NCBI RefSeq assembly: GCF_056746865.1
Contig: NZ_CM163382.1
Direction: 5' to 3' (one strand)
DNA: 64,000 nucleotides
Every line of letters begins with the position of its first letter. Position 1 is the first letter of the stretch. This document shows positions 14,083 through 38,923 of the stretch, one piece after another. Below the pieces are notes generated by a model. The model was not told where the DNA came from and did not search any database. It was given only the letters and a program-made list of their open reading frames with translations. A program made the translations under genes and the position numbers.

Positions 14083-16152
14083 ATGAAACGCGCCCCTTTT
14101 CTCTGTAAGCAGTCTCCGGACCGCACGCTCGAAGTGGTGATCCTTGCCGGAAGCCTGGCATGGGAGACCTCACACGTGTGGCGAAAAGATCCCGACCGGG
14201 AAGATGATGTTCCCCCGATGGTACTCGGCCCGGATGAACTGGCCGATCTGAGCAATCTGACCATTATCAGGCCCGACACGCTCTACGTCCGGGTACTTCG
14301 CACCGGCGATATCAGTGAAGAAGAGCTGCTGAAAATTGCCGTAAAACTGGCGCACGCGGGCGTGCAGATGGCCCGGCTGATGACCCCTGACGGTGAGTTA
14401 CTGGAGAACTGGACCGGACAGCTTGAACGCCTGCGACAGGAAAGACCTTCTGACATCCTGCCGGATCACTTCCGCCTCGATGAAGAAGCACTGTGGTTTG
14501 ATAAGCTCACCGAACGGCGCGACGGTGAAAGCGATGTCCAGCCCCAGCGCATCTGTTCCCCTCTGCGCGTCACTGCCATCACCTGCGACAGCCATGACGG
14601 CAGCTATGGCCGCCTGCTGGAATGGCACACCACCACCGGGCAATTGCGGCGCTGGGCCATGCCGATGGCGATGCTCAGCGGCAACGGCGAGGAGCTGAGG
14701 CGCATTCTGCTGGAGAACGGCCTGACCTATATCTCCACCCGCCCTGCCCTGCGCAGTCTGCTGTGCGAATATATCTCGCGGTCACTCCCCGGACGCCGGG
14801 TCACCTGCGCGGAGAAAACCGGCTGGCACAACGGCGTGTACGTGCTGCCGGATGAGGTTATCGGTCCCGATGGCGACAACGTCATTCTCCAGGGCAGCCA
14901 CTACCTGACTGGCGGCTTTGCACAATCCGGTACGCTGGCAGAGTGGCAGGAGCAGGTCGCCGCGCTCTGTGCAGGCAATTCACGGCTGGTCTTTGCCGTC
15001 TGCTGTGCGCTGGCCGCCCCGCTGCTGCGCCTGACAGGAACGGGCGGCGGAGGCTTTCATCTGCGCGGTGAGTCCACTGACGGTAAGACCACGGTGATGA
15101 AAGTGGCCGCTTCCGTCTGTGGCGGGACGGATTACTGGCACTCCTGGCGGGCCACCGGGAATGCGCTGGAAGGAATTGCCAGCCGCCACAACGATGCCCT
15201 GCTGCCACTTGATGAACTGCGCGAAGTGGACCCGCGTGAGGCCGGGATGATTGCCTATATGCTGGCGAACGGACAGGGCAAGGGGCGCGCCCGCACCGAT
15301 GGCGAAGTGCGTAACCGCAGGCACTGGACGCTGCTGCTGTTCTCCACCGGGGAGCTGTCGCTGGCGGAACACACCGAATGCGCCGGGGAGCGCCTCTACG
15401 CCGGGATGGACGTGCGCATGGTACAAATCCCCAGCGACACCGGGCAGCATGGTTCGTTTGAGCAGTTGCACGGGTTTGCCAGCGGCCAGCAGTTCGCCGA
15501 TACTCTCTGCGACCGGGTGGCCCGCTTCCACGGCACCGCCTTTCGTGCCTGGCTGGCCTTCCTCACCAGCGACCTGGACGCCAGCACCACGCTGGCGAGA
15601 GAGTTACTTCGCCGCTACCAGACCGCCCTGATGCCGGACAACGCCGGAAACCAGGTGCAGCGCATCGTGGCCCGTTTTGCCCTGCTGGCGGTGGCCGGGG
15701 AGATAGCGACACTGAACGGTATCACGGGCTGGCAGGAAGGCTCGGCGTATGGGGCGGTGCAGATCTGCCTTCACGCCTGGCTGAACGAGCGCGGCCATAT
15801 TGCCAACCAGGAAGATGAAGGCGTGCTGGCGCAGATCAAGCGGTTCATTACCGCGCACCAGTACAGCCGCTTTGCCTCGTGGGATGGCCCGGACCGCCCG
15901 CTGAATATGGCAGGCTTTCGCCGGGTGGAAAAAGATCCGCTGACGGGCGAGGAACACACGCTGTTCTTCATCCTGCCTGAGGGCTGGCGGGAAATATGCC
16001 GGGGATTCAGTCCTGCCAGAGCGGCCAGATTATGCCAGGAAGCGGAATGCCTGCTGCCCGGCAGCGACGGGAAATACCAGTCGCAGGTTCGCCTGCCGGA
16101 GATCGGCAAAGCCAGAGTCTACCGCCTCACCTCCCGCATCCTCAGTATCTGA
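14083..16152 (+). CDS. DUF927-type replication protein (P-loop SF3-helicase-like) of an integrative satellite-like element
   Basis: 689-aa high-GC ORF. ICSPLRVTAITCDSHDGSYGRLLEWHTTTGQLRRWAMPMAML resembles DUF927. Walker A-like LRGESTDGKTTV. Position alpA - rep - iterons. Confidence 0.8.
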   Translation: MKRAPFLCKQSPDRTLEVVILAGSLAWETSHVWRKDPDREDDVPPMVLGPDELADLSNLTIIRPDTLYVRVLRTGDISEEELLKIAVKLAHAGVQMARLMTPDGELLENWTGQLERLRQERPSDILPDHFRLDEEALWFDKLTERRDGESDVQPQRICSPLRVTAITCDSHDGSYGRLLEWHTTTGQLRRWAMPMAMLSGNGEELRRILLENGLTYISTRPALRSLLCEYISRSLPGRRVTCAEKTGWHNGVYVLPDEVIGPDGDNVILQGSHYLTGGFAQSGTLAEWQEQVAALCAGNSRLVFAVCCALAAPLLRLTGTGGGGFHLRGESTDGKTTVMKVAASVCGGTDYWHSWRATGNALEGIASRHNDALLPLDELREVDPREAGMIAYMLANGQGKGRARTDGEVRNRRHWTLLLFSTGELSLAEHTECAGERLYAGMDVRMVQIPSDTGQHGSFEQLHGFASGQQFADTLCDRVARFHGTAFRAWLAFLTSDLDASTTLARELLRRYQTALMPDNAGNQVQRIVARFALLAVAGEIATLNGITGWQEGSAYGAVQICLHAWLNERGHIANQEDEGVLAQIKRFITAHQYSRFASWDGPDRPLNMAGFRRVEKDPLTGEEHTLFFILPEGWREICRGFSPARAARLCQEAECLLPGSDGKYQSQVRLPEIGKARVYRLTSRILSI

Positions 16153-16824: not shown

Positions 16825-17811
16825 ATGGTTAAAATTCACATTTTAGATGCCGGACATGGTGATTGCTTGTTAGTAGACTGCGATGGTGTCAAATTGTTAA
16901 TTGACGCTGGCCCAAGTACATTTAGGTATAGAAAAAAAATTTCAGCCAAGTTAGCTGAACTTCTGAATGGCGAGTCTGTTGATATCGCTTTTGTAACTCA
17001 CAATGATGATGACCATATCGGTGGTTTCAAATACCTAATTGAAAATAAAATAAACATCAAGAGATTTGTATTCAATAGTTTATCTAACATTAAACATGTA
17101 ATAAAGAATTCAAGCAATAAAATATCGACCAAACAAGATATAAATCTTGATAGAATAGTGAAAGATGGAAGTTTTGTCTTTTCGACACTAACTTCAGATG
17201 ACTCTCCTATTTTAATCAGAAATATAAAAATAACACCTATTACTCCTTCAAAAAATATCCTTTTAAAATATTTAGAACAACAAGAGCGTAAAAACACAGA
17301 AATTAAAATATCATCTTCATCTGAAAAATATAGTATTAAAGAAGCACTGCAGTTGCTAAGCAATGGAAATGATATGTTTGTAAAGGATCCATCGGCAACT
17401 AATAAAACCAGTTTATCATTTATGATTGAGTATGGGAATTTTTGTGGATTATTCCTTGGTGATGCACACGAAGAAGACATCTACTCATATATGGCTAATC
17501 ATTGTGCCAATAGAAAAATATCATTTAACGTTGTTAAGTTAGCACATCATGGTAGTGAAAAAAACACGAGTTCACGGTTATTGAAGTTAATTGGTACAAC
17601 AGAATATATCATATGTGCGAATAAAACCAAGCATAATCATCCAAATAATTTAACTCTTGCAAGAATTTTAATACATGAACAAGAACCTAAAATTCATATG
17701 AGTAGCAGCAATCAGGAGATAATAAATTTACTCAATCAAATAAATTTATTAGGCTTCGGCATTACTGCAACCCATTCTGAAAATGGAGTTAATACTTTAA
17801 TCTATGAGTAG
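16825..17811 (+). CDS. metallo-beta-lactamase-fold hydrolase, ComEC/Rec2-type (candidate nuclease)
   Basis: 328 aa with HILDAGHGDCLLVDCDGVKLLIDAG, THNDDDHIGG (a variant of HxHxDH) and KLAHHGSEKNTS (the ComEC-like HHGS motif). The stop overlaps the next start (ATGAGTAG). Confidence 0.8.
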   Translation: MVKIHILDAGHGDCLLVDCDGVKLLIDAGPSTFRYRKKISAKLAELLNGESVDIAFVTHNDDDHIGGFKYLIENKINIKRFVFNSLSNIKHVIKNSSNKISTKQDINLDRIVKDGSFVFSTLTSDDSPILIRNIKITPITPSKNILLKYLEQQERKNTEIKISSSSEKYSIKEALQLLSNGNDMFVKDPSATNKTSLSFMIEYGNFCGLFLGDAHEEDIYSYMANHCANRKISFNVVKLAHHGSEKNTSSRLLKLIGTTEYIICANKTKHNHPNNLTLARILIHEQEPKIHMSSSNQEIINLLNQINLLGFGITATHSENGVNTLIYE

Positions 17812-19027
17812 AAAAAATGCTGTAAAAATAAAAGTCAATGATTCGGAATCAAGTGGCTATTTTTTCAAAGCAAGCTCCAAGGATGATTCTTTTGTAATTT
17901 CATCCAAGCACGGCCTTTGTTCTAGACAGTCAGATTGTGAAGAATTTCTTGATAATGTTCAGAATTGTTGCCGTTTATGCACTCAAGATTTAAATATTGA
18001 CAATATATCTTTTGAAATTGAAGGAAATAAGAAGCTAAAGCCAATAAGTTATTTCAGTCTTGAAAACAAAGATATTGTCATCACCAAAGTGGATGGGGTA
18101 TCTAATTATCCTTTAAGGATAGGAAAGATAGAAAAAGAAAAGTATTATACTTATGGTTACAAGAGTAAATGTGATAAGCCTGGCAGAATTTTATTAAATG
18201 AGCCAGATTTATTAGATGGGATTTGTTATTTCAATATATGTTCCGATGCAACACCTGAGTTGATTGAGAAAAGTGAAGAATATTATGGAATTTCAGGTTC
18301 ATTAGTTTTTGATTCTCCAGAAAAAGATGTTTTAACCGCACATGCAGTAATAACAACTAATGAAACCAATAATGACTTAGGTTCAGAAATATTACATGAT
18401 ATTGATTTCAAAGAAATTAATAACTTTTTCGGCTGTGAAGTATTCTTGGGTAAAAAACTCCAATTTCAACTAGATGATACTTTTAGTAAAAATTTTTCAA
18501 AGATTGGAGAAGTGCTTGTTAGCGACAAACTCCAAATTGAAATATTTATTTCATCTTATAAAGGTATACCATATTTTAATTTGACACCAATTGCTGATGC
18601 ATTAATTCAAAGTAAGTTTTATTATGTTTTTGGAAATGTTAGTAGAAGTGATCATATAAATATAATCGCTGCATCAAACATTATACTCAACAAATCTCAT
18701 TTAGAACCAGCTAATAAATTATTAACTAGCAAATTAACTGAATCGATATTATCAGCACCTCATATTTATTCCACTAGCATTGATGATAATAATTATCATC
18801 ATATTCATTTTAAACAAATGACTTCTGGTGATATTGAGCTCATAATATCATGTTATGGTGGAGGAGATGATCTTCCTAAAGATATAAATGGCACTTTAAC
18901 TGAGTTGTTACACAATATAAATACTTATAACTTAAATAAAAATTCAATAATTGAGAGGTCTTTTCTTAATCAAAAATTTACAGATGCACAATGCGAAATT
19001 TTATATGAGATTTTTTTGAGCGATTAA
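17804..19027 (+). CDS. fusion protein: N-terminal trypsin-like serine protease domain plus an unrecognised C-terminal domain
   Basis: 407 aa. Candidate catalytic triad in SSKHGL, KDIVITKV and YGISGSLVFD. Cys-rich insert CSRQSDCEEFLDNVQNCCRLC. The ORF ends just after a T7 run, and one extra T would fuse it to the next ORF. Confidence 0.7.
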   Translation: MSRKNAVKIKVNDSESSGYFFKASSKDDSFVISSKHGLCSRQSDCEEFLDNVQNCCRLCTQDLNIDNISFEIEGNKKLKPISYFSLENKDIVITKVDGVSNYPLRIGKIEKEKYYTYGYKSKCDKPGRILLNEPDLLDGICYFNICSDATPELIEKSEEYYGISGSLVFDSPEKDVLTAHAVITTNETNNDLGSEILHDIDFKEINNFFGCEVFLGKKLQFQLDDTFSKNFSKIGEVLVSDKLQIEIFISSYKGIPYFNLTPIADALIQSKFYYVFGNVSRSDHINIIAASNIILNKSHLEPANKLLTSKLTESILSAPHIYSTSIDDNNYHHIHFKQMTSGDIELIISCYGGGDDLPKDINGTLTELLHNINTYNLNKNSIIERSFLNQKFTDAQCEILYEIFLSD

Positions 19028-19053
19028 CTGATTCAATCGACAGAATTTCATTA

Positions 19054-19269
19054 TTGCATGTAATTCCTTTGGACCATTATTTAATAAAAGATAAATCAGA
19101 AATTAAAAATGAAATTATTACCATTGTTGAGAAAGCGTGTCAAGAATTAGACAGCAACATTTTAGATTATCTTGAGCATGGAATATCTATAAATCTATTA
19201 ATATTTCCAACTAATAATAAAGATGAATTATCAGGGTTAATGCAAAGGTTGATAAATAATTATGAATGA
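19054..19269 (+). CDS. 71-aa ORF with a TTG start, probably the detached C-terminus of the preceding gene
   Basis: Its frame is open from 19009. An 8-T instead of 7-T run at 19011-19017 would join it to 17804-19027. Its stop overlaps the helicase start (ATGAATGA). Confidence 0.45.
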   Translation: MHVIPLDHYLIKDKSEIKNEIITIVEKACQELDSNILDYLEHGISINLLIFPTNNKDELSGLMQRLINNYE

Positions 19270-20464
19270 TGCTATTAATTATATCTGCAATAGAATAAAA
19301 AATAGTGACGGATTTAGTTACTGTTATGAAAAACTATTGATATCTATTTCAAAGAATCTATTCAATCCAACTAGCAGCAACCCCATTACTCAGCGTGAAT
19401 ATCAACAATTGCTAAAATTCAGCGATTTTTTATCTAATTCCGAAAAAGAAGAAGATCGAAACCTAGCGTTAAAAATAATATCTGCAATATATGATCTTTA
19501 TAAAGAAGATCATAGTTGCCAATTACTGACAAAATCCATCCTTAGCAAACTTGGACTTTTTGCCGCTGAGGAAGTATTTACTGATAGTGATATAAAACTA
19601 CCATTATCCTATGAAATTTCTAGCAAATACAGAAAAATAAAAAATCGTATAAATGGTTCTGAGTACATATTCACTAATCGACAATGTGATGTGTACAGTG
19701 AGATCATGCAGAATGATTATTTTAGTTTTTCTGGCCCGACATCCCTCGGCAAATCATTCTTGATTAAACATGCTGCCGTTGATCTTATTGAAAATAATAA
19801 ACTAATTATTTTCATCCTTCCAACAAAAGCTTTATTAGAAGAATATCTAATTGACTTAAAATCTATACTCAATGAAAAAGGCGTGAAAGATATAAATGTA
19901 AGTAAATCCGTATCACAAGTTGACAAAGAAAGTAAAAATATATTGGTGTTTACACAAGAAAGATATAACTCATTTTTATATGAAAAGTCTTATGATAATA
20001 TGGATGTTGACTTTTTATTTATTGATGAAGCTCATAAAGTACTTGACAAAAAGAATAATAGAGCTATAACCCTATATAAAGTAATAAATAACTCCATAGA
20101 AAAATATGGTAAATTAAAAGTCATTTTTTCCTGCCCAGTAATTTCCAATCCTGATGTGTTTTTCAAAACATTTAATATACCGAATAGCAAGAAAACAAGA
20201 AGTTTATGTATTAAAGAATCTCCGGTAAATCAAGATTTGTACTTTGCAAATTATCAAGATAATAATTTTGTCTATTTTGATTCTATTTTAAATAAAAAAA
20301 TTAATTTCAATGTAAATAATGCTTATCAAAATGACTTTGAAATAATCAGAGGATTAGCACAACAATCCAAGTCAAACCTTATCTACGTATCAAGTAAAAC
20401 AGAATGTATAAGGAAATGTAACGAATTTCTAGAGTATTTAATTCGGGAAAAAAAGTATCGATAA
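19262..20464 (+). CDS. SF2 DExH helicase, N-terminal part (RecA1 domain); gene split by a frameshift
   Basis: Walker A FSGPTSLGKSF, motif II FIDEAHKV, motif III-like VIFSCP. It ends 7 nt after an A7 run at 20448-20454. Confidence 0.8.
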   Translation: MNDAINYICNRIKNSDGFSYCYEKLLISISKNLFNPTSSNPITQREYQQLLKFSDFLSNSEKEEDRNLALKIISAIYDLYKEDHSCQLLTKSILSKLGLFAAEEVFTDSDIKLPLSYEISSKYRKIKNRINGSEYIFTNRQCDVYSEIMQNDYFSFSGPTSLGKSFLIKHAAVDLIENNKLIIFILPTKALLEEYLIDLKSILNEKGVKDINVSKSVSQVDKESKNILVFTQERYNSFLYEKSYDNMDVDFLFIDEAHKVLDKKNNRAITLYKVINNSIEKYGKLKVIFSCPVISNPDVFFKTFNIPNSKKTRSLCIKESPVNQDLYFANYQDNNFVYFDSILNKKINFNVNNAYQNDFEIIRGLAQQSKSNLIYVSSKTECIRKCNEFLEYLIREKKYR

Positions 20465-20502
20465 CAACAGACGATGAACTTATTTCCGAGTCAAAAATAA
20501 TC

Positions 20503-21786
20503 ATGGAGTATATTCATAAAGATTTTAACTTAGCTCATGTATTAAAATATGGTATAGCATTTCACCATGGTTCACTACCTCTATTTATAAGAAAAAGAAT
20601 AGAGGACTTATATTCCAAAAAGAAAATAAATTTTATCTTTTGCACATCAACTTTACTTGAAGGGGTAAACTTACCCACAAAGAATGTTTTTATTTATCCA
20701 TTCCCTAAAAAGACTGTTAACGATGAAAAAAAATGCCGATTAGATTTTTGGAATCTGGCGGGGCGAGCTGGAAGATACAGAAGTGAATTGACTGGTAACA
20801 TAGTATGCCTGAATACCGCTGATAATAACTGGAGCAATGCAGATGCTAAAATTAGCCTAGGTAATAATGTTATTATAGAGGATGAAATAAACTCAACATT
20901 ACTACGCCATCAAAAAATATTAAATTATTTTGATGGTAAAGTTAAATCTCCAACTAATGACATTATTCAACTCAGCTCACTTATTCTATCAGAAATATTA
21001 ACTTATTTAGATAAAGGTTATATAGGGCGAATTTTAAATACCTTTAATGAAAAGATTCGGTTTATGCTTATTGATTCAGGAAAAAAACATCTTGATCGTA
21101 ATAGAATTATTGAAATAGATAAAGTGACCTTTTCAGAAAATCATATATTCTCAACATCCATACACGCTAAAGCCCAACTCAATGCTAAAAATAAAGAAAA
21201 ATTATTGCGTTCTTATAGCAGAGAGGATGTTTTCAATTATTTGGAAACAATAAATGAAATATATGGCCTGCGTAACACCCCTGATTCATTAAACCAACTG
21301 TGCATTGTGACTTATTCGTGGCTCATGGGTAATACGCTGAATTTATTAATATCAAACGCTATTAAATATAGCAATTCAGTTAGAGATCCTATTAGCTATA
21401 GATGGGTTAAATTTGATAAAACCAATCCTGATCATATAAACGCAAAAATAATGGAGGCAATACAATGCATTGAATCTGAAGTTACTTTTAAACTTGAAAC
21501 ATGTATTGCTCATTTTTATCAGCTATGTCAATCAATTCACGGCGATGAAAATGCAGGCATTAATCTTTCACCTTATTTAGAATATGGAACATTAGATACT
21601 AACATCATAGAACTTCAAGAGTTTGGTTTCTCTCGTTTAGCCGCAATTGAAATTATAGCAAAGCACAAAGAGTGTGTTACATTCAAAACAAATGAGACAT
21701 CATTGCAAATAAACACTCAGAAATTAAGAGCTAAGATTGAAAAGCACAGTGTAATTGATAGAGAACTATCATGGTTGAATTTATAA
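20503..21786 (+). CDS. SF2 DExH helicase, C-terminal part (RecA2 domain plus C-terminal extension)
   Basis: GIAFHHGSLPLFIRKRIEDLY, FCTSTLLEGVNLPTKNVFI and NLAGRAGRY are Ski2/Hel308-like motifs IV-VI. The frame is open upstream back to 20422 and joins 19262-20464 if the A-run had 8 A. Confidence 0.8.
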   Translation: MEYIHKDFNLAHVLKYGIAFHHGSLPLFIRKRIEDLYSKKKINFIFCTSTLLEGVNLPTKNVFIYPFPKKTVNDEKKCRLDFWNLAGRAGRYRSELTGNIVCLNTADNNWSNADAKISLGNNVIIEDEINSTLLRHQKILNYFDGKVKSPTNDIIQLSSLILSEILTYLDKGYIGRILNTFNEKIRFMLIDSGKKHLDRNRIIEIDKVTFSENHIFSTSIHAKAQLNAKNKEKLLRSYSREDVFNYLETINEIYGLRNTPDSLNQLCIVTYSWLMGNTLNLLISNAIKYSNSVRDPISYRWVKFDKTNPDHINAKIMEAIQCIESEVTFKLETCIAHFYQLCQSIHGDENAGINLSPYLEYGTLDTNIIELQEFGFSRLAAIEIIAKHKECVTFKTNETSLQINTQKLRAKIEKHSVIDRELSWLNL

Positions 21787-21940: not shown

Positions 21941-22420
21941 TTAATCATCATCTAAATTATAATCATGGTAAATAGCCAGTTGCTTGTTGATTGGTAATTT
22001 ATTGATTTTTAAGGCCAACTCGATAGAGGATGCCGATAACATCTTTCTTTCTTCATCTGAAGTTCGTTCAACACCTTCAACTTGGTAGAGCAAAGCATTT
22101 AGCATCTTTTTTATAAATATACCTCGCTGTTCATCAGACAAATGTTCAGCCAAAGTCATTAGTAGACCTAATTCCCTTTTTACTCGTTCGCTATCTTGAG
22201 ATTGACCTGTTTCCTCACCTAGTAACCAAGCCGGACTAACTCCAGTAGCATGAGCGATCTTCTGAAGTTGCTCAATTCCATTCGGAAGCGAATCTCCGGC
22301 AACATATCCACGGATCGTAGAGTACGGGATATCACATTTTTGTGCCAGATCACGCATGGAATCGCCTGTCATAGCGAGAAGTTTCTCTAATCTGGCACTA
22401 AATTCACTCTTAATCATCAT
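21941..22420 (-). CDS. XRE-family helix-turn-helix transcriptional regulator
   Basis: 159 aa. The N-terminus LEKLLAMTGDSMRDLAQKCDIPYSTIRGYVAGDSLPNGIEQLQKIAHATGVSPAWLLGE is a classic Cro/CI-type HTH. Low GC, convergent with the helicase gene. Confidence 0.85.
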   Translation of the reverse strand: MMIKSEFSARLEKLLAMTGDSMRDLAQKCDIPYSTIRGYVAGDSLPNGIEQLQKIAHATGVSPAWLLGEETGQSQDSERVKRELGLLMTLAEHLSDEQRGIFIKKMLNALLYQVEGVERTSDEERKMLSASSIELALKINKLPINKQLAIYHDYNLDDD

Positions 22421-25674: not shown

Positions 25675-26018
25675 ACAAACGGCGCAGGGTAGCTCCCTGT
25701 GCCAGTTCCATATGATTTTGCTAATTCTACTCACTGGTATATTCACTCGTTAGGCTTTGGCCCGCAGATATATTAATGTTTTCCATCCTGCCGCAACAAA
25801 ACCCCACACACGATTGTATGTTTTTTAGTCATCAAGGTGAATAGAGGTATTTTATGGCTATGACCTTTTTCACCTCCCTGCCAATAGTATCATGCTAAAC
25901 CTCTCATCTATGTTTATTGCGCCATAATAGTCAACAAGTATTTCAAAAAAGTCCCAAGCAAATTATAATGCTGGAGTTTCATAATGTCCCTTTAAAAACC
26001 ATTTTAAGAAGAGCTATT

Positions 26019-27170
26019 ATGTCCCTCCCTACAAATTTTAATGATATTCTTCGTCTTTTTGAAAAAGATTACGATACAGCCAAAGAAGATAATGCCTTAA
26101 GTGCACGCGGACAATTTCTGCAACTTTACCCCCTTAATCGCCTAAAAAAAATGACGCTTGATGACTATGTCATCGGCAAAGGCACGGCCTCATTTTGTGC
26201 TTGTGTTGAAGTAAAAACCAGAACATGGGCAAATATGCAAGGTGCGACGGCGCTCAAATTTGGTATTTATTATGGAAAATCAAAATCAGATCCAGCCGTC
26301 CGCTATCGTTTTACTCAGAAATTTGGCGATGATGATAGTACTAATAAAGAAGTTTTCGCTAATGTTAAAGACGCTTTACTAGACCTAATACAGTCAGGGA
26401 AAGAATTAGATTTTAGAGCGATTGACGAGAACCCCCTATCCCAAATGTTTAAGGCTAAAATATTGAGCCTTTACTTTCCAGAACACTTTATAAACATTTG
26501 CAGCAAAGATCATCTTAAAGAAATTGCTATGAAAATGGGTATAAAAGAGCAACAGTTTATTAGTAAATATCAACATTTGTTATTCAAGAAAAAACTAGAG
26601 CATAAAATCACCCGAAACTGGAGCAATCCAAAATATATGTCCTTCCTTTATGCCCAGTTCATACGTAAGGATCTTAGCAGCGCTCCTGCTGTGATAGTTA
26701 AAAAACCACAAAAAAGAAACCATCCCGAAGTCAATTTCGAAGAAATAACGGACAATCGTGATTTAATAGGCAAAAAAAGCGAAGAATATGCATTAAACTG
26801 GGAAAAAAACCGCCTAATCGGTCTCGGCTATTCAAAACTAGCTGAGGAAATAGATGATCGCCGTAATCGTCCAACTTATGGTTACGACTTTCTTTCTTTT
26901 AATGCCCCAGGTGATGAGCGATACATCGAAGTAAAATCAATTGGCCGAGATGGAAAAGAGGGAGCATTCCGTTTTTTCCTCTCAGGAAATGAACTCACCG
27001 TTTCTAATTTAAGTAACCACCGTAAAAACTATTATTTTTATCTTGTACAGTATGGGAAAGATGGAGAGCCATGCAATCTATATGTAAAACATGCTCAAGA
27101 TCTTTACACTAATAGTGAAATGACCCCTTGTGCTTACGTTGTTAGGTTCGATCTGGAAGAACCTGCTTAA
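26019..27170 (+). CDS. fusion protein with a C-terminal DUF3883-type restriction-endonuclease-fold domain
   Basis: The C-terminus EEYALNWEKNRLIGLGY...YGYDFLSFNAPGDERYIEVKSIGRDGKEGAFRFFLSGNELTVS...YYFYLV fits the DUF3883 GYD..S/..IEVK signature. ATG 26019 has only a purine-rich AAGAAGAG stretch upstream and no clear Shine-Dalgarno. The ORF track starts at 25917. Confidence 0.7.
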   Translation: MSLPTNFNDILRLFEKDYDTAKEDNALSARGQFLQLYPLNRLKKMTLDDYVIGKGTASFCACVEVKTRTWANMQGATALKFGIYYGKSKSDPAVRYRFTQKFGDDDSTNKEVFANVKDALLDLIQSGKELDFRAIDENPLSQMFKAKILSLYFPEHFINICSKDHLKEIAMKMGIKEQQFISKYQHLLFKKKLEHKITRNWSNPKYMSFLYAQFIRKDLSSAPAVIVKKPQKRNHPEVNFEEITDNRDLIGKKSEEYALNWEKNRLIGLGYSKLAEEIDDRRNRPTYGYDFLSFNAPGDERYIEVKSIGRDGKEGAFRFFLSGNELTVSNLSNHRKNYYFYLVQYGKDGEPCNLYVKHAQDLYTNSEMTPCAYVVRFDLEEPA

Positions 27171-33843: not shown

Positions 33844-34866
33844 ATGTCTAGTCTTAATTTATTCGATGATGTCGTACCTTTAGAAAAACAGCATCCAATA
33901 TATATAATGATGAAAAAGGAACGCTATGAACCGGAGAGAGAAGTAATTAACCAATGGGCAAAAGGATTTCTAGACAGGGATAATAAGTTTACAAAAGAAT
34001 TTCAAACAAGTTTTGAACCTTGCCTATGGGAGTTATATCTTTTTGCTTATCTTAAAGAATTGGGTTTAAGGAACGACTTTTCATACGATGCACCTGACTT
34101 CATCGTCAATGAACCTGGGTTTTGCATTGAGGCAACCATAGCCCTTCCGGCACAAGGAGCCCCTGGAGCGCATGGTTTCAGTACGGAAGATATGCCAAGA
34201 GATTTTAATAAGTTTAATTCTGAGGCATCTATTCGACTTAGCAATAGTTTTATATCAAAGGTAAAAAAATTAAGATCGAGATATTCTCAACTTCCTCAAT
34301 GTAAAGAAAAACCTTTTGTTATCGCCATAGCTTCCTTCGACCGACCTTTTGCGCACTTTGCCGCAGCCAGACCCATACTTGCAACATTATATGGTTTATA
34401 TCATGATGAAGAAGCAACCATTGAATCAGGATCAAAGAGCATAATTTCTTATAACGTTGAGGCTGCGGTAAAAAAAGAAAATGTTAATATAGCCATGGGG
34501 TTATTTTGCACGCCTGATTATTCGGATGTAAGTGCTGTGATTTATAGTAGTTTAGCTACTTGGGGAAAAGTAAGAGCTTTGGCGGACAATCCTTCAGCTC
34601 TAACAATTTATACAACCTTTACCCCAAGAGAAAATTCATTATATCCTAAAGTTCATCAAGCCAAAAAAAATGATTATATAGAGCATCTGGCAGATGGATT
34701 GTATATTTTACATAACCCATTTGCCAAGTATCCGTTGCCTAAAGAGACGCTAAGCCACCCTAGAGTAGCACAAGGTTATGTTGAATCTGATGGATACGTC
34801 AATTTTGTAGCGCCAGAGGATTTTCTTTTATTGCGTTTTTTACAATCATTCAATCTTAAAGATTAG
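33844..34866 (+). CDS. uncharacterised protein, paralog B of the 10733-11905 product
   Basis: ATG 33844 is preceded by GAGGTG. 340 aa with FQTSFEPCLWELYLFAYL, APDFIV..FCIEAT, KPFVIAIASFD, IAMGLFC..DVSAVIYS and DGLYILHNPFA. Confidence 0.75.
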   Translation: MSSLNLFDDVVPLEKQHPIYIMMKKERYEPEREVINQWAKGFLDRDNKFTKEFQTSFEPCLWELYLFAYLKELGLRNDFSYDAPDFIVNEPGFCIEATIALPAQGAPGAHGFSTEDMPRDFNKFNSEASIRLSNSFISKVKKLRSRYSQLPQCKEKPFVIAIASFDRPFAHFAAARPILATLYGLYHDEEATIESGSKSIISYNVEAAVKKENVNIAMGLFCTPDYSDVSAVIYSSLATWGKVRALADNPSALTIYTTFTPRENSLYPKVHQAKKNDYIEHLADGLYILHNPFAKYPLPKETLSHPRVAQGYVESDGYVNFVAPEDFLLLRFLQSFNLKD

Positions 34867-35196: not shown

Positions 35197-36294
35197 TTAT
35201 TTTCTTGATAGGCTTTGTATAGTATGAATAAACCTTACAAAGTTATGAAGAAGCTCGTGATTTTCCTCTGATATACCATCTGGGTCAAAGTGCATCACGT
35301 CGTTACGAATTATTCTGACCTTGTCGAGCTCTTTAGTAAATATTTTCTTATCTATTTGAAGTTCGGTTTTTTTCCACAATTCTGGATTTTCAAAAAGTCG
35401 TATATATTCCCCAAAGGTTAAATCTGCGACCGACTCTATAACCCGTTCGCTGTCAAATGGATTAACGATGCTAACAAGCTCATCTTTCGTAAATTTTCCA
35501 TCTATCAGCTTACGAATATGATTTTCGATTTCAGATAGTAAAAGAAAAGGTTCTGACAACTGTCTGAACTGAGAACTAAGATCGGTAGTAGTTATAATCC
35601 CACTAATTCTTTGATCAGAAGATCGCACTAATACGTAAGCATACTCAATAATTCTAGGTAGTGCAGAAAAAATAGAGTCACTGGCGTTTATTTCCCTGTG
35701 TGGCTTCATATAATCACGCACAACCGCAGATTCTGATTGGGTCAACGCTAGTATTGGAGCAATGCTTTCCCAACTAATAACACCTTTAACATCTCGCTCG
35801 CTGGTCATAACGGGTAGTTGAGAGTAGTCATGCCGCAACATCAATGTGATGGCTTCTGTTAATGTAGCGTCAGGTTTCACGGTCACTAGTTTAACATCCG
35901 ATGCTTCGAGTCGACTAACACGGAAGGCTGGCTCGGAAACTGCACCGGAAATTAGTTCATCATGCGGCTGAAATACTGTTTCAGGTGTAGCCAATTCGGC
36001 GTTACTTGATTCGGTTTCTTCATGTAAACATTCACCTGCTTCATGGGGCGTTGCGTCATTCCCCGGAGGTGCATAGATAGTAATTTTTGCATCCAGCGGC
36101 ACACTATCAAAATCAGGTTCGGTTTTAACTCCTAAGCTTTCTAATGCTTTGCGAATTTTGTACGCAACCATGTAGCCTCGACGCTCTGCGCCAAACCAGC
36201 TTATGAATTCTCGCACTGATACTGGGTTTGAGGACATACCGTCTTTTAGTTCACGAAGGATTTCGTTAAGTCTTTCTCGATTTTCTACTGCCAT
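35197..36294 (-). CDS. CBS-pair protein with a C-terminal HEPN-like domain (Rx4H motif)
   Basis: 365 aa. Two CBS-like segments (VKLVTVKPDATLTEAITLMLRHDYSQLPVM..VKGVISWESI and VRDYMKPHREINASDSIFSALPRIIEYAYVLVRSSDQRISGIITTTDL). The C-terminal helical region contains IIRNDVMHF (RNDVMH encoded at 35290-35307). Confidence 0.7.
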   Translation of the reverse strand: MAVENRERLNEILRELKDGMSSNPVSVREFISWFGAERRGYMVAYKIRKALESLGVKTEPDFDSVPLDAKITIYAPPGNDATPHEAGECLHEETESSNAELATPETVFQPHDELISGAVSEPAFRVSRLEASDVKLVTVKPDATLTEAITLMLRHDYSQLPVMTSERDVKGVISWESIAPILALTQSESAVVRDYMKPHREINASDSIFSALPRIIEYAYVLVRSSDQRISGIITTTDLSSQFRQLSEPFLLLSEIENHIRKLIDGKFTKDELVSIVNPFDSERVIESVADLTFGEYIRLFENPELWKKTELQIDKKIFTKELDKVRIIRNDVMHFDPDGISEENHELLHNFVRFIHTIQSLSRK

Positions 36295-36940
36295 AAAATT
36301 TTCTCCATGTAGGTTGTCGGCTACTGTTAGGTTTCAATCTTGATTCAGGCTTCTCACGCTTTTTTTAAAATCTGGACAACGAGGCTGCACTGACTTTTTC
36401 AGCTCACCTCAGATTGCACCATCCCATACACATAGCTCAGATTCCTAATGTTCAGTATAAGGAGGCCAGAATACGAATTGCCCTTACCGCTAGTGCCAGC
36501 GCGTTGAGTTTAGTAGATGCCTTATTCATTTAGAATTTGATAAAAATACAAGACTCGGACAACAAGCTGCAATATTAATCGTTATTTTTCCACTCGAGGC
36601 CCACCGTCCGTTTCTGGCACAGGGCTGCTGTTGCAGCCCTGAAAACCTTAGACTTCAATCGATTCAAAGATCTCTAATGCATCATCTACTTCAATACCCA
36701 GATAACGGACTGTGCTTTCCAGTTTCTTATGGCCCAACAGAAGTTGGATCACCCGAAGATTCTTAGTTTTCTTGTAGATAAAGTAGGGTTTTGTTCTTCT
36801 CATGGAACGTGTGCTGTAAAGCGAATCTTCGAGACCAAGCTTTCCTGCCCACCCATGAAAGATTCGGTTGTATTGTAGGGTTGATATGAACCGCCCCGGA
36901 AATCCTGGAGACTAAACTCCCTGAGAAAGAGGTAAACAGG

Positions 36941-37267
36941 ATGACTAAAAATACTCGTTTTTCCCCCGAAGTCCGTCAGCGGGCGATTCGTATGGTTCTG
37001 GAAAGTCAGGATGAATATGACTCACAGTGGGCGGCAATTTGTTCCATTGCCCCAAAGATTGGCTGTACGCCGGAGACTCTGCGTGTCTGGGTTCGCCAGC
37101 ATGAGCGGGATACCGGGGGCGGTGATGGTGGGCTCACCAGCGCTGAACGTCAGCGTCTGAAAGAGCTGGAACGTGAAAATCGTGAACTGCGCCGCAGTAA
37201 CGATATCCTTCGCCAGGCTTCCGCTTATTTTGCGAAGGCGGAGTTCGACCGCCTCTGGAAAAAATGA
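36941..37267 (+). CDS. IS629 OrfA (HTH transposase subunit)
   Basis: 108-aa ORF inside the IS. It overlaps orfB at AAAAAATGATG, the frameshift region. Confidence 0.9.
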
Positions 37268-38154
37268 TGCCACTGCTGGATAAGCTGCGTGAGCAGTACG
37301 GGGTCGGACCGGTATGCAGCGAACTGCATATTGCCCCGTCAACGTATTACCATTGTCAGCAACAGCGACATCATCCGGATAAACGCAGTGCCCGTGCGCA
37401 GCACGACGACTGGCTGAAGAGAGAGATACAGCGCGTATACGATGAAAATCATCAGGTGTACGGTGTGCGTAAAGTCTGGCGTCAGTTGTTACGGGAAGGA
37501 ATCAGGGTGGCCAGATGTACAGTGGCACGTCTCATGGCGGTTATGGGACTTGCCGGTGTTCTCCGGGGTAAAAAGGTCCGTACGACCATCAGCCGGAAAG
37601 CCGTTGCCGCAGGCGACCGCGTAAACCGTCAGTTCGTGGCAGAACGACCTGACCAGCTGTGGGTGGCTGATTTTACTTACGTCAGCACATGGCAGGGCTT
37701 CGTCTATGTGGCGTTTATCATTGATGTGTTTGCCGGATACATCGTGGGGTGGCGGGTCTCATCGTCTATGGAAACGACATTCGTGCTGGATGCGCTGGAG
37801 CAGGCGTTGTGGGCCCGTCGTCCGTCTGGCACCATCCATCACAGCGATAAAGGCTCTCAGTATGTGTCACTGGCCTATACGGAGCGACTAAAAGAAGCCG
37901 GATTACTGGCATCAACAGGGAGTACAGGCGACTCGTATGACAACGCGATGGCTGAGAGCATCAATGGTCTTTACAAAGCGGAGGTAATACACCGTAAGAG
38001 CTGGAAAAACCGTGCAGAAGTGGAACTGGCCACACTAACGTGGGTGGACTGGTATAACAATCGACGATTGCTGGGAAGGCTGGGCCATACTCCTCCGGCA
38101 GAAGCAGAAAAAGCTTATTATGCTTCCATCGGAAACGATGATCTGGCAGCCTGA
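37264..38154 (+). CDS. IS629 OrfB (DDE integrase-fold transposase)
   Basis: 296-aa ORF with [17 protein letters not shown] and the [11 protein letters not shown] region. Confidence 0.9.
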
Positions 38155-38923
38155 GTTCACAGATAAAACACTCTCCAGGAAACCCGGGGCGGTTCAATAT
38201 GTGCTGATTAGTTCCGATACGAGACCGGAACAAGAAGTCTTTATTGTGCAAATAATCAAGCTTTATCAATGCAGCAATAGCTTCTCTTGTTCCTTTGGTT
38301 ATCTCAAATTGCACAGGGCTACCGGTTTTCTGTTGCAACACCGTTGCTCTGCTTGAAACCAAGCGACCATATGCCACATCAGATACTTTGAGTTTGACCA
38401 GATCACAGCCTCGAAGCTTACTGTCCAGGGCCATATTGAACAGAGCTAAATCGCGCGTTTTGCCTTCCAGTTCAAGCCGGATTCGGGTCCCCCAGATATG
38501 AGATATCTGAAGTGGTCTTTTTTGGCCGATGATACGGTCTTTGTTCCACGGTGACGTGTTCATACTCAAATCTCCTGCAATGTGGGAGATTTGAGTATGG
38601 TTGTCCCTTATGAGCGCAGGCTGTGTGAAAACACTCACCAAATACTAAAATGTATGAGGTTATGCAAAATCTGGAATCAATCAGCTGATTATCAGAGTCG
38701 AATTTTACGTAGGGAAGATATTTTCAGCTCTGTTTTAGGCCATTTCTGCACTCAAAAACGTTTTCACACAGCCGCGGTCAGATCGCAATCTTGCACCACA
38801 ATCTGGTACGAGTCAGGCAAGCATTTGGGGTGAAAGCCTGTCCTGAGTGAGAATCTAACCAAGCATTGTGTTATGTTTAACAACTGGAGTAGACTACAAA
38901 ATCAATTAATTAAGGATCTTGAG

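Follow-up and report, generated by a model that had tools for sequence, protein, structure and literature searches.

Gene Content of the Operon

Two genes of one putative defense operon in Escherichia coli stop within a few nucleotides of a 7-nt homopolymer, and in each case a single extra base restores a full-length frame. The question is whether these interruptions are sequencing errors, reversible switches, or a real loss of the system. The operon lies in a window of 64,000 nucleotides (contig NZ_CM163382.1, assembly GCF_056746865.1; the window here means this whole stretch), in which the low-GC block at 16.8–21.8 kb is, judging by homology, a HamMAB operon, a Hachiman variant with a trypsin-MBL effector module. 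The block is carried on an island integrated beside ssrA, and its genes, all on the + strand, run in the order HamM (MBL pronuclease), trypsin-HamA, and HamB helicase. HamM is intact in the window, and both trypsin-HamA and HamB are broken.

HamM (16825..17811; 328 aa) has an MBL fold matched by Pfam Lactamase_B, and its best PADLOC matches are MBL effector models (LmuA, 2.9e-61; RTasMBL, 1.3e-48; Avs1a, 2.4e-35); its RefSeq label is ComEC/Rec2 family. The stop codon of HamM overlaps the start of the trypsin-HamA gene. An MBL first gene in the same arrangement is also found in a Morganella locus (L007) and on a metagenome contig (L008).

As a single sequence, trypsin-HamA has no match in Pfam, PADLOC, or PDB searches, and its HamA relationship was found only by a family profile. 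That profile matches PDB 9wh1_A (“HamA C-terminal domain-containing protein”) over positions 5–173 and 280–485 (whole-sequence E 1.2e-17); the segment 5–173 aligns to the N-terminus of 9wh1_A and also gives a weak match to the serine protease SplD. The putative triad H36 (in SKHG), D90, and S164 (in GxSG) is invariant in 20 homologs, one homolog carrying the NCBI name DUF1837. Repaired HamB contains the Pfam domains DEAD (139–276) and Helicase_C (422–506) and matches the PADLOC HamB model PDLC00176 end to end (5–837 on 4–842 of 845, E 5e-187), and intact HamB aligns to PDB 9wh1_B (6–831 on 6–844, E 2e-93). The initial annotation, made from the window alone, was thus right to call the middle gene a protease fusion and the last a helicase.

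Homopolymer Tracts and Reading Frames

The truncated trypsin-HamA ORF (17804..19027; 407 aa, made up of 404 native residues and then 3 out-of-frame ones) ends at a TAA codon (19025–19027) 8 nt past a T7 tract (19011..19017; zero-frame phasing T.TTT.TTG). The break, at codon 405 of 488, strands the C-terminal 83 codons in the -1 frame (19018..19269), where a 71-aa ORF is found at 19054..19269. The stranded stretch corresponds to the C-terminus of 9wh1_A and holds the family-invariant residues P469, N471, and E475.

The N-terminal fragment of HamB (19262..20464; 400 aa), which comprises the RecA1/DEAD half and matches Pfam DEAD and ResIII as well as PADLOC HamB, ends at a TAA codon (20462–20464) after an A7 tract (20448..20454; zero-frame phasing A.AAA.AAG). 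Here the break is at codon 397 of 841, and given the positions of the DEAD and Helicase_C domains it splits HamB between its two RecA-like halves. The remainder, with Helicase_C and the C-terminal domains, is stranded in the -1 frame (20455..21786) and includes an annotated ORF of 427 aa (20503..21786). RefSeq names the 400-aa piece “DEAD/DEAH box helicase” (WP_001323186.1) and the 427-aa piece “helicase-related protein” (WP_001323185.1).

One T added to the first tract gives a protein of 488 aa reading ...EILYEIFFERLTDSIDRISLLHVIPLDHYL..., and one A added to the second gives a protein of 841 aa reading ...IREKKVSITTDDELISESKIIMEYIHKDF.... Both repairs had been predicted in the initial annotation, with lengths of about 488 and about 841 aa, and both are borne out by natural alleles: those with T8 encode 488 aa and those with A8 encode 841 aa. 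Because alleles with both 8-nt runs carry intact genes of exactly these lengths, the attribution of the breaks to tract loss is direct rather than statistical.

The ancestral operon had four 8-nt runs (window positions 16932, 19011, 20448, and 20726), and the two of the four that contracted are among the longest runs in the operon. The others are an A8 run inside HamM (16932..16939), in frame here and a further slippage hotspot, and an A8 run in the C-terminal part of HamB (20726..20733), unchanged in the window. With eight 8-nt runs in the 37.5-kb region, the clustering of two contractions in the operon (P ~0.1–0.2) is not significant evidence for selection.

Homologs in Other Genera

Homologs in other genera (37–64% identity; 43–64% for the closest HamB homologs found) are almost all single ORFs, of 482–497 aa for trypsin-HamA and 829–848 aa for HamB, with 97–100% coverage of the repaired proteins; shorter homologs are few, and most of them come from partial records. 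The initial annotation had named split ORFs shared by homologs as a sign of a fixed pseudogene or a genuine multi-ORF organization. The E. coli split ORFs occur in none of the other-genus homologs returned, and single ORFs prevail there. When the Morganella locus and the metagenome contig are aligned with the window by codons, their frames read straight through both sites, and the T and A runs are absent at the aligned codons in both loci. Conserved recoding was rejected on this basis, the codon-aligned loci having neither a frameshift nor the homopolymers. The length of 378 aa given for the Morganella homolog reflects a gene-calling choice; its ORF is open from an MSRK start, and N-terminal truncation of this protein was accordingly rejected.

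Tract Alleles and Further Decay in E. coli

The locus is carried by 131 of 5426 complete E. coli genomes, about 115 of which share one T7/A7 sequence throughout a 1571-nt segment that includes both tracts. The blocks of a wider protein collection come from NCBI, ENA, and Logan assemblies. Exact copies of the three products (407, 400, and 427 aa) each occur there on 1000 or more contigs, and the 400-aa HamB fragment is found in far more blocks than the intact 488-aa protein (12,241 vs. 413). Three complete genomes carry the T8/A8 allele, with intact coding sequences for 488 and 841 aa, as do 240 contigs of the wider collection. T8 was read in A10, 2021CK-01784, and LSC52 and in loci L017–L022 and L025–L030, and A8 accompanies it in every T8 locus except L020 (GCA_000243195.1), a suspect assembly.

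Over 1573 nt, the two indels are the sole differences between T8/A8 and T7/A7, and inside the whole operon the intact and broken alleles are separated by one third-codon-position SNP in the MBL gene and by no other substitution. This near-absence of substitutions makes the event too recent for dN/dS to reveal relaxed constraint. Across 37.5 kb, four SNPs distinguish the three strains with T8/A8 from six with T7/A7 or T6/A7, and the SNP at L012:16124 matches the tract state in all 20 loci scored. Single-tract intermediates (T8/A7 or T7/A8) were found neither among the 131 complete genomes nor in the 82 contig places read, these places covering a small part of the 12,241 and 413 blocks in the collection. 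The comparison of tract lengths among strains that the initial annotation had recommended thus reveals T6, T7, and T8 and A7 and A8, with the state linked to haplotype.

Lesions at the locus extend beyond the two tract losses. A further contraction from T7 to T6 (33 contigs; strains EC1 and FCI48) creates an immediate TGA, and in EC1 (L003/L015) the HamM run at 16932 has become A9, which shortens the annotated MBL gene. Insertion elements are also found (IS5 in trypsin-HamA, IS1 at the end of HamB, and IS1 in the MBL gene). Within the T8/A8 lineage, about 11 of 24 contigs carry the nonsense change E475* at an invariant residue, which is an independent lesion. All told, this one operon has collected two frameshifts, a further contraction, four IS or run changes, and, in the sister lineage, a nonsense change. 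These repeated lesions fit the reported toxicity of the system and suggest that E. coli repeatedly sheds it.

Probable Inactivation and Its Alternatives

We consider it very probable that heritable one-base losses have inactivated HamMAB and that the window holds an ordinary dead defense operon. In a working system, HamB would sense DNA and then release the trypsin domain fused to HamA, and the freed protease would cut the HamM pronuclease to yield an active DNase and abortive infection; this mechanism, and toxicity on over-expression, have been described for related systems (Tuck et al., 2025, bioRxiv 10.1101/2025.07.28.667249; Huang et al., 2025, bioRxiv 10.1101/2025.09.03.673762). Replication slippage would have shortened two 8-nt runs by a base each (T8 to T7 and A8 to A7). 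Both contractions are real and heritable, and they are fixed in a haplotype that is very common in E. coli. They cut off conserved C-terminal parts of trypsin-HamA and HamB, with the gene for the self-inhibited pronuclease alone left intact. Given the loss of these conserved parts, the system is most likely dead, and from its sequence the T7/A7 allele, with two of three genes frameshifted, would be expected to provide no defense. The loss may have been favored or tolerated owing to the toxicity of the expressed system.

The observations behind this reading are the tracts and frames themselves, the intact natural allele, the single-ORF norm elsewhere, the haplotype linkage, and the further decay. 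Among the options listed in the initial annotation, genuine inactivation of a costly system is the one supported, by the intact T8/A8 sister alleles, the single ORFs in other genera, and the additional lesions. A tract state that follows haplotype, together with the lack of intermediates in the genomes and contig places read, points to one origin and argues against switching. Two contractions with no sampled intermediate seem more than one would roughly expect under neutrality, given normal indel rates in E. coli, and this pattern hints at selection or a mutator episode.

Homopolymer error in sequencing or assembly, with a true genome of T8 and A8 and intact genes, is virtually impossible for this haplotype. 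Miscalled homopolymers do turn up at the locus in poor assemblies: SCU-482 (L006) has A9 and A10 runs and many other indels, and in GCA_000243195.1 (L020) three A8 runs are all shortened to A7. However, the identical T7/A7 sequence is shared by genomes from unrelated projects and many laboratories (about 115 of 131), its products recur across the protein collection, and flanking SNPs go with the tract state, a link that errors would not produce; on the genome census, the collection, and this linkage, the error proposed in the initial annotation is rejected. The same annotation had suggested slipped-strand switching, in which both tracts would act as reversible on/off switches for a costly abortive-infection system. 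Tract lengths do differ among strains, and toxicity on over-expression would make an off state useful, but we regard switching as very improbable. The state follows haplotype without exception (20 of 20 loci), no single-tract revertants occur among the genomes and contig places read, and a return from T7/A7 to the on state needs two simultaneous +1 events. Moreover, the later change from T7 to T6 goes away from the intact frame, and neither of the two homologous loci in the codon alignments has the runs. For a contingency locus in a species with proficient mismatch repair, runs of 7–8 A or T are also short.

It is quite improbable that the operon is attenuated rather than dead, with a little full-length protein supplied by -1 ribosomal slippage or by RNA polymerase slippage. 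Each downstream frame lies at -1, and the heptamers T TTT TTG and A AAA AAG stand in the X XXY YYZ phase; given stimulators, few heptamers work as efficiently in E. coli as A AAA AAG (PMC4066793), and slippage during transcription can compensate for indels in long A/T runs (PMC1088944). This phase, however, is the automatic result of deleting one base from in-frame ancestral runs. Folds of 60 nt downstream gave z of -0.56 and +1.06 vs. shuffles, with neither site beyond controls, and 60-nt and 101-nt folds around each site revealed nothing beyond shuffles (best z -1.9, for the 101-nt window including the A-run); no Shine-Dalgarno-like (AGGAGG-like) element was apparent by visual reading 10–14 nt upstream. 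With no frameshift-stimulating structure at either site, any read-through should be less than about 1%, and heptamers without stimulators reach only 2–10 times a background of ~0.055% (PMC4066793). Selection against slippage-prone runs is evident at ~9 nt in many genomes (PMC1088944), the slippery signal is not conserved in homologs, the T6 derivative destroys the heptamer and stops at once, and a complete system would need both rare events. A trace of full-length protein may nevertheless arise by -1 slippage. It is decidedly improbable that the T7/A7 allele is thereby throttled, so that traces of full-length trypsin-HamA and HamB would keep a toxic system at a tolerable dose in a globally successful lineage; were this the case, rare T8/A8 revertants would be available under phage pressure. 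Finally, the 407- and 71-aa pieces and the 400- and 427-aa pieces could be translated separately and assemble into a working split system, which we judge extremely unlikely. RefSeq does give the 400-aa and the 427-aa piece a CDS each, neither marked as pseudo, and the helicase break separates RecA1 from RecA2, a point at which a split helicase can be imagined. However, none of the other-genus homologs returned is split, and split and intact alleles differ at the breaks by just two indels and hence show no adaptation. The 427-aa ORF lacks 16 linker residues and, on reading the sequence, has no evident ribosome-binding site upstream of its ATG at 20503; the 71-aa ORF has its TTG start deep within the lost domain, and further lesions keep accumulating.

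Comparison With Known Systems and Use of the Alleles

The operon resembles HamMAB, or Hachiman-trypsin-MBL (Tuck et al., 2025; Huang et al., 2025), in its three-gene order and protein lengths (328, about 488, and about 841 aa), in the match of the middle and helicase proteins to chains A and B of PDB 9wh1, and in the conserved protease triad; it differs in that the trypsin-HamA and HamB genes of the window are each frameshifted. HamMAB has been characterized from Pseudomonas fluorescens and Klebsiella pneumoniae. Further marks of HamMAB are a pair of inhibitory insertion loops in HamM with sites for protease cleavage, and phage defense that depends on all three activities. With canonical Hachiman HamAB (DUF1837 nuclease and helicase; PMC12278908, PMC11914072) the operon shares a clear HamB member and a middle protein with a HamA C-terminal domain. 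Trypsin-HamA fusions are reported to lack the D-GExK nuclease motif of HamA (Tuck et al., 2025; Huang et al., 2025).

Single-base contractions in A/T runs also break ORFs in homopolymer-slippage pseudogenes and “rescuable” indels (Baranov et al., 2005, PMC1088944; Atkins et al., 2016, PMC5009743), but the runs here have 7 nt vs. the ~9 nt typical for productive transcriptional slippage, and the split arrangement is not conserved. The HamB break has the identical A AAA AAG heptamer of the dnaX and IS911/IS3 -1 frameshift sites, in the right phase and with the downstream ORF at -1. Unlike those sites, it has no stimulatory hairpin or pseudoknot and, by visual reading, no apparent Shine-Dalgarno-like element, and its heptamer is unconserved, having come from a recent deletion in an in-frame A8 run. 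As in the contingency loci of Haemophilus, Neisseria, and Campylobacter, a coding homopolymer sets the frame and its length varies among strains; in contrast to them, these are short tracts in a clonal rather than intermixed state, and two of them would have to switch together. E. coli is not known for contingency-locus switching in defense genes.

The value of the result lies mostly in annotation and in the choice of experimental material, and it opens no new biological question. RefSeq enters the pieces of the broken genes as ordinary CDS without a pseudogene mark, and with four fragments listed as ordinary proteins, defense counts for this common E. coli lineage would wrongly score a Hachiman helicase or give confusing partial matches; the four fragments should carry pseudogene marks. 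T8/A8 and T7/A7 form a natural matched pair that differs by the two tract bases within the broken genes and the one third-position SNP in the MBL gene, and a pair differing so little is convenient for measuring the cost and benefit of a trypsin-MBL Hachiman system in its native host.

The Operon and Its Two Frameshifts

The block at 16.5–21.9 kb has a G+C content of 26–33%, vs. 51–66% in the flanking 1.5 kb at each end, and the island carrying the operon adjoins ssrA and also encodes an integrase, AlpA, and a DUF927 protein. Gene 1 (16825..17811) encodes an MBL-fold protein that scores best in PADLOC against the MBL effector models LmuA, RTasMBL, and Avs1a. The repaired helicase aligns end-to-end with the PADLOC HamB model (E 5e-187) and also matches chain B of PDB 9wh1 (E 2e-93). 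Neither Pfam nor PADLOC recognizes the middle protein as a single sequence; a profile of 20 of its homologues matches 9wh1 chain A, titled “HamA C-terminal domain-containing protein,” over 5–173 and 280–485 (E 1.2e-17). H36, D90, and S164 (in GxSG context) are invariant in the middle-protein alignment and form a serine-protease triad. By sequence, the operon is HamMAB (Hachiman-trypsin-MBL), known from two preprints of 2025 (bioRxiv 10.1101/2025.07.28.667249, 10.1101/2025.09.03.673762). According to these, DNA sensing by HamB leads to release of the HamA trypsin domain, which converts the MBL pronuclease to an active DNase by cleavage; each of the three activities is needed, and expression is toxic. 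In Morganella morganii and one metagenome contig, all genes of this three-gene operon are intact.

The truncated trypsin-HamA ORF (17804..19027; stop TAA at 19025–19027) contains the T7 tract at 19011–19017, with zero-frame phasing T.TTT.TTG, and the HamB N-fragment ORF (19262..20464; stop TAA at 20462–20464) contains the A7 tract at 20448–20454, phased A.AAA.AAG; the segments 3′ of both tracts are in the -1 frame. Computed on the window sequence, one added T yields a 488-aa protein and one added A an 841-aa protein, so that the tracts, stops, one-base repairs, and junction sequences of the initial annotation were all reproduced. The T7 frameshift costs trypsin-HamA 84 residues, including the invariant P469, N471, and E475; the lost segment aligns to the C-terminal region of the HamA chain in the solved structure. 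With the A7 frameshift, the DEAD half of HamB is no longer joined to the Helicase_C half or to any C-terminal domain. We infer loss of function of both broken genes.

In RefSeq (e.g., NZ_CP032515.1), WP_000087769.1, WP_001323186.1, and WP_001323185.1 (window 17804–21786) are normal CDS with no pseudogene flag, and the HamB fragments go under the name “histidine kinase” in some sources. Annotation correction and a natural intact/broken allele pair are the main uses of the present results.

Distribution and Origin of the Broken Allele

Three explanations had been offered for the tracts: homopolymer sequencing error, genuine inactivation of a costly system, and slipped-strand on/off switching. 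The locus is carried by 131 of 5426 complete E. coli genomes, and about 115 of these carriers (estimated from a ranked, evenly sampled listing of the 131) are identical over 1571 nt covering both T7 and A7. The exact 407-, 400-, and 427-aa products each occur on at least 1000 contigs in a collection of 15 billion proteins, and the 400-aa fragment appears in 12,241 blocks, which draw on NCBI, ENA, and Logan assemblies. Sequencing error is rejected on these counts, and true homopolymer artefacts at the locus were found only in SCU-482 and GCA_000243195.1, both evidently poor assemblies. The latter (JH594555.1), in which the operon genes are fragmented, has T8, yet its three A8 runs (in the MBL gene, at the HamB site, and in the C-terminal part of HamB) are all A7, which looks like systematic homopolymer under-calling, not biology. 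Switching finds no support, since tract state is linked to haplotype and single-tract genotypes are absent from the sets examined. A SNP at position 16124 of locus L012 tracks tract state in 20/20 loci scored, and neither T8/A7 nor T7/A8 was found among 131 complete genomes, 24 contigs with the intact 488-aa protein, 24 with the intact 841-aa protein, or 34 with the 400-aa fragment. Genuine inactivation is supported by an intact allele in other strains, single-ORF homologues, and repeated further lesions: the double frameshift is real, lineage-fixed, and pseudogenises a known defence system.

Phase variation and programmed recoding are unsupported. The X XXY YYZ phasing at both sites is the automatic result of deleting one base from the in-frame runs GAA AAA AAA GTA and ATT TTT TTT GAG. 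Folds of the 60 nt 3′ of each site were no better than shuffled controls (z -0.56, +1.06), and no Shine-Dalgarno-like element was seen by eye at the usual upstream distance. E. coli heptamers without stimulators give 2–10x a background of ~0.055% (PMC4066793), and in many genomes selection against slippage-prone A/T runs is evident from ~9 nt (PMC1088944). Read-through at trace level may occur in each gene; both rare events would be required for a complete system from the T7/A7 allele. In strains EC1 and FCI48 T7 has become T6, with a matching 404-aa product on 33 contigs; in T6 a TGA stop follows at once and the T TTT TTG heptamer is lost, which shows no selection to retain the slippery site.

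Tract lengths compared across strains, as the initial annotation had proposed, were T8/A8, T7/A7, and T6/A7. Strains A10, 2021CK-01784, and LSC52 have T8 and A8 with annotated 488-aa and 841-aa genes, and the intact 488-aa protein occurs on 240 contigs (413 blocks). The two tract indels are the sole differences between intact and broken alleles over 1573 nt. Homologues from other genera (37–64% identity) are nearly all 482–497 aa and 829–848 aa, spanning 97–100% of the repaired proteins; most of the few shorter records carry a partial flag. Codon alignments with the Morganella and metagenome loci stay open across both sites, and neither homopolymer is conserved in these two loci. The intact natural alleles, single-ORF homologues, and open codon alignments together indicate T8/A8 as the ancestral state. 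Two of the four 8-nt runs in the ancestral operon have contracted.

In a 37.5-kb alignment of nine strains, four SNPs set the T8/A8 group (three strains) apart from the T7/A7 or T6/A7 group (six strains), and the region is otherwise almost invariant; at least one carrier bears an ST69 label. The pattern matches one clonally inherited double-mutant haplotype and not reversible switching. A pair of contractions, lacking any sampled intermediate and accompanied by almost no substitutions, looks like more than a rough neutral expectation at normal E. coli indel rates; selection for inactivation and a transient mutator state are both plausible candidate explanations. The 37.5-kb region has eight 8-nt runs, and a simple test for clustering of the two hits among them was not significant (p ~0.1–0.2).

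Continuing and Independent Decay

Further lesions were found in both lineages. In EC1, the A8 run of the MBL gene (window 16932–16939) is A9, shifting the annotated MBL start, and IS5 is inserted upstream in the island. IS5 interrupts trypsin-HamA in GN02270, and IS1 lies at the HamB 3′ end in NMBU-W13E19; on other contigs, IS1 sits within the MBL gene or there are additional breaks. In the T8/A8 lineage, about 11 of 24 contigs, otherwise T8/A8 with intact HamB, carry a G-to-T change (GAA to TAA; position 2964 of loci L026 and L028) at E475, a family-invariant residue, leaving a 474-aa trypsin-HamA. This nonsense change is independent of the tract contractions. Recurrent damage of this kind, arising independently, is what a dispensable or costly system in E. 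coli would be expected to show, in agreement with the toxicity reported in the two preprints.

Other Features of the Island

A 1313-bp insertion at window 36884–38196 is bounded by terminal inverted repeats (TGAACCGCCCCGG...CCGGGGCGGTTCA), contains two transposase-like ORFs that overlap, and resembles an IS3-family element. It is present in the window only, being absent from eight compared strains, in which the insertion site lies inside an annotated tyrosine recombinase gene. The gene for a “CBS domain-containing anti-phage protein” has a T7 run at 35367–35373 that is T6 in 2021CK-01784 and LSC52 (near 34418 in both loci), where the CDS is annotated as 942 nt vs. 1098 nt. Here a homopolymer has also contracted in a second gene of defence type on the island, within the HamMAB-intact lineage. 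A second low-GC patch (25917–27170; 37–38% G+C) lies between sugar-transport genes of the same island and encodes a 417-aa protein, with a DUF3883/NO VEIN domain in matching RefSeq records, which may be another defence-type gene product. Just downstream of HamB, the helix-turn-helix gene at 21941–22420 (- strand) is annotated as 138, 158, or 159 aa, depending on the strain.
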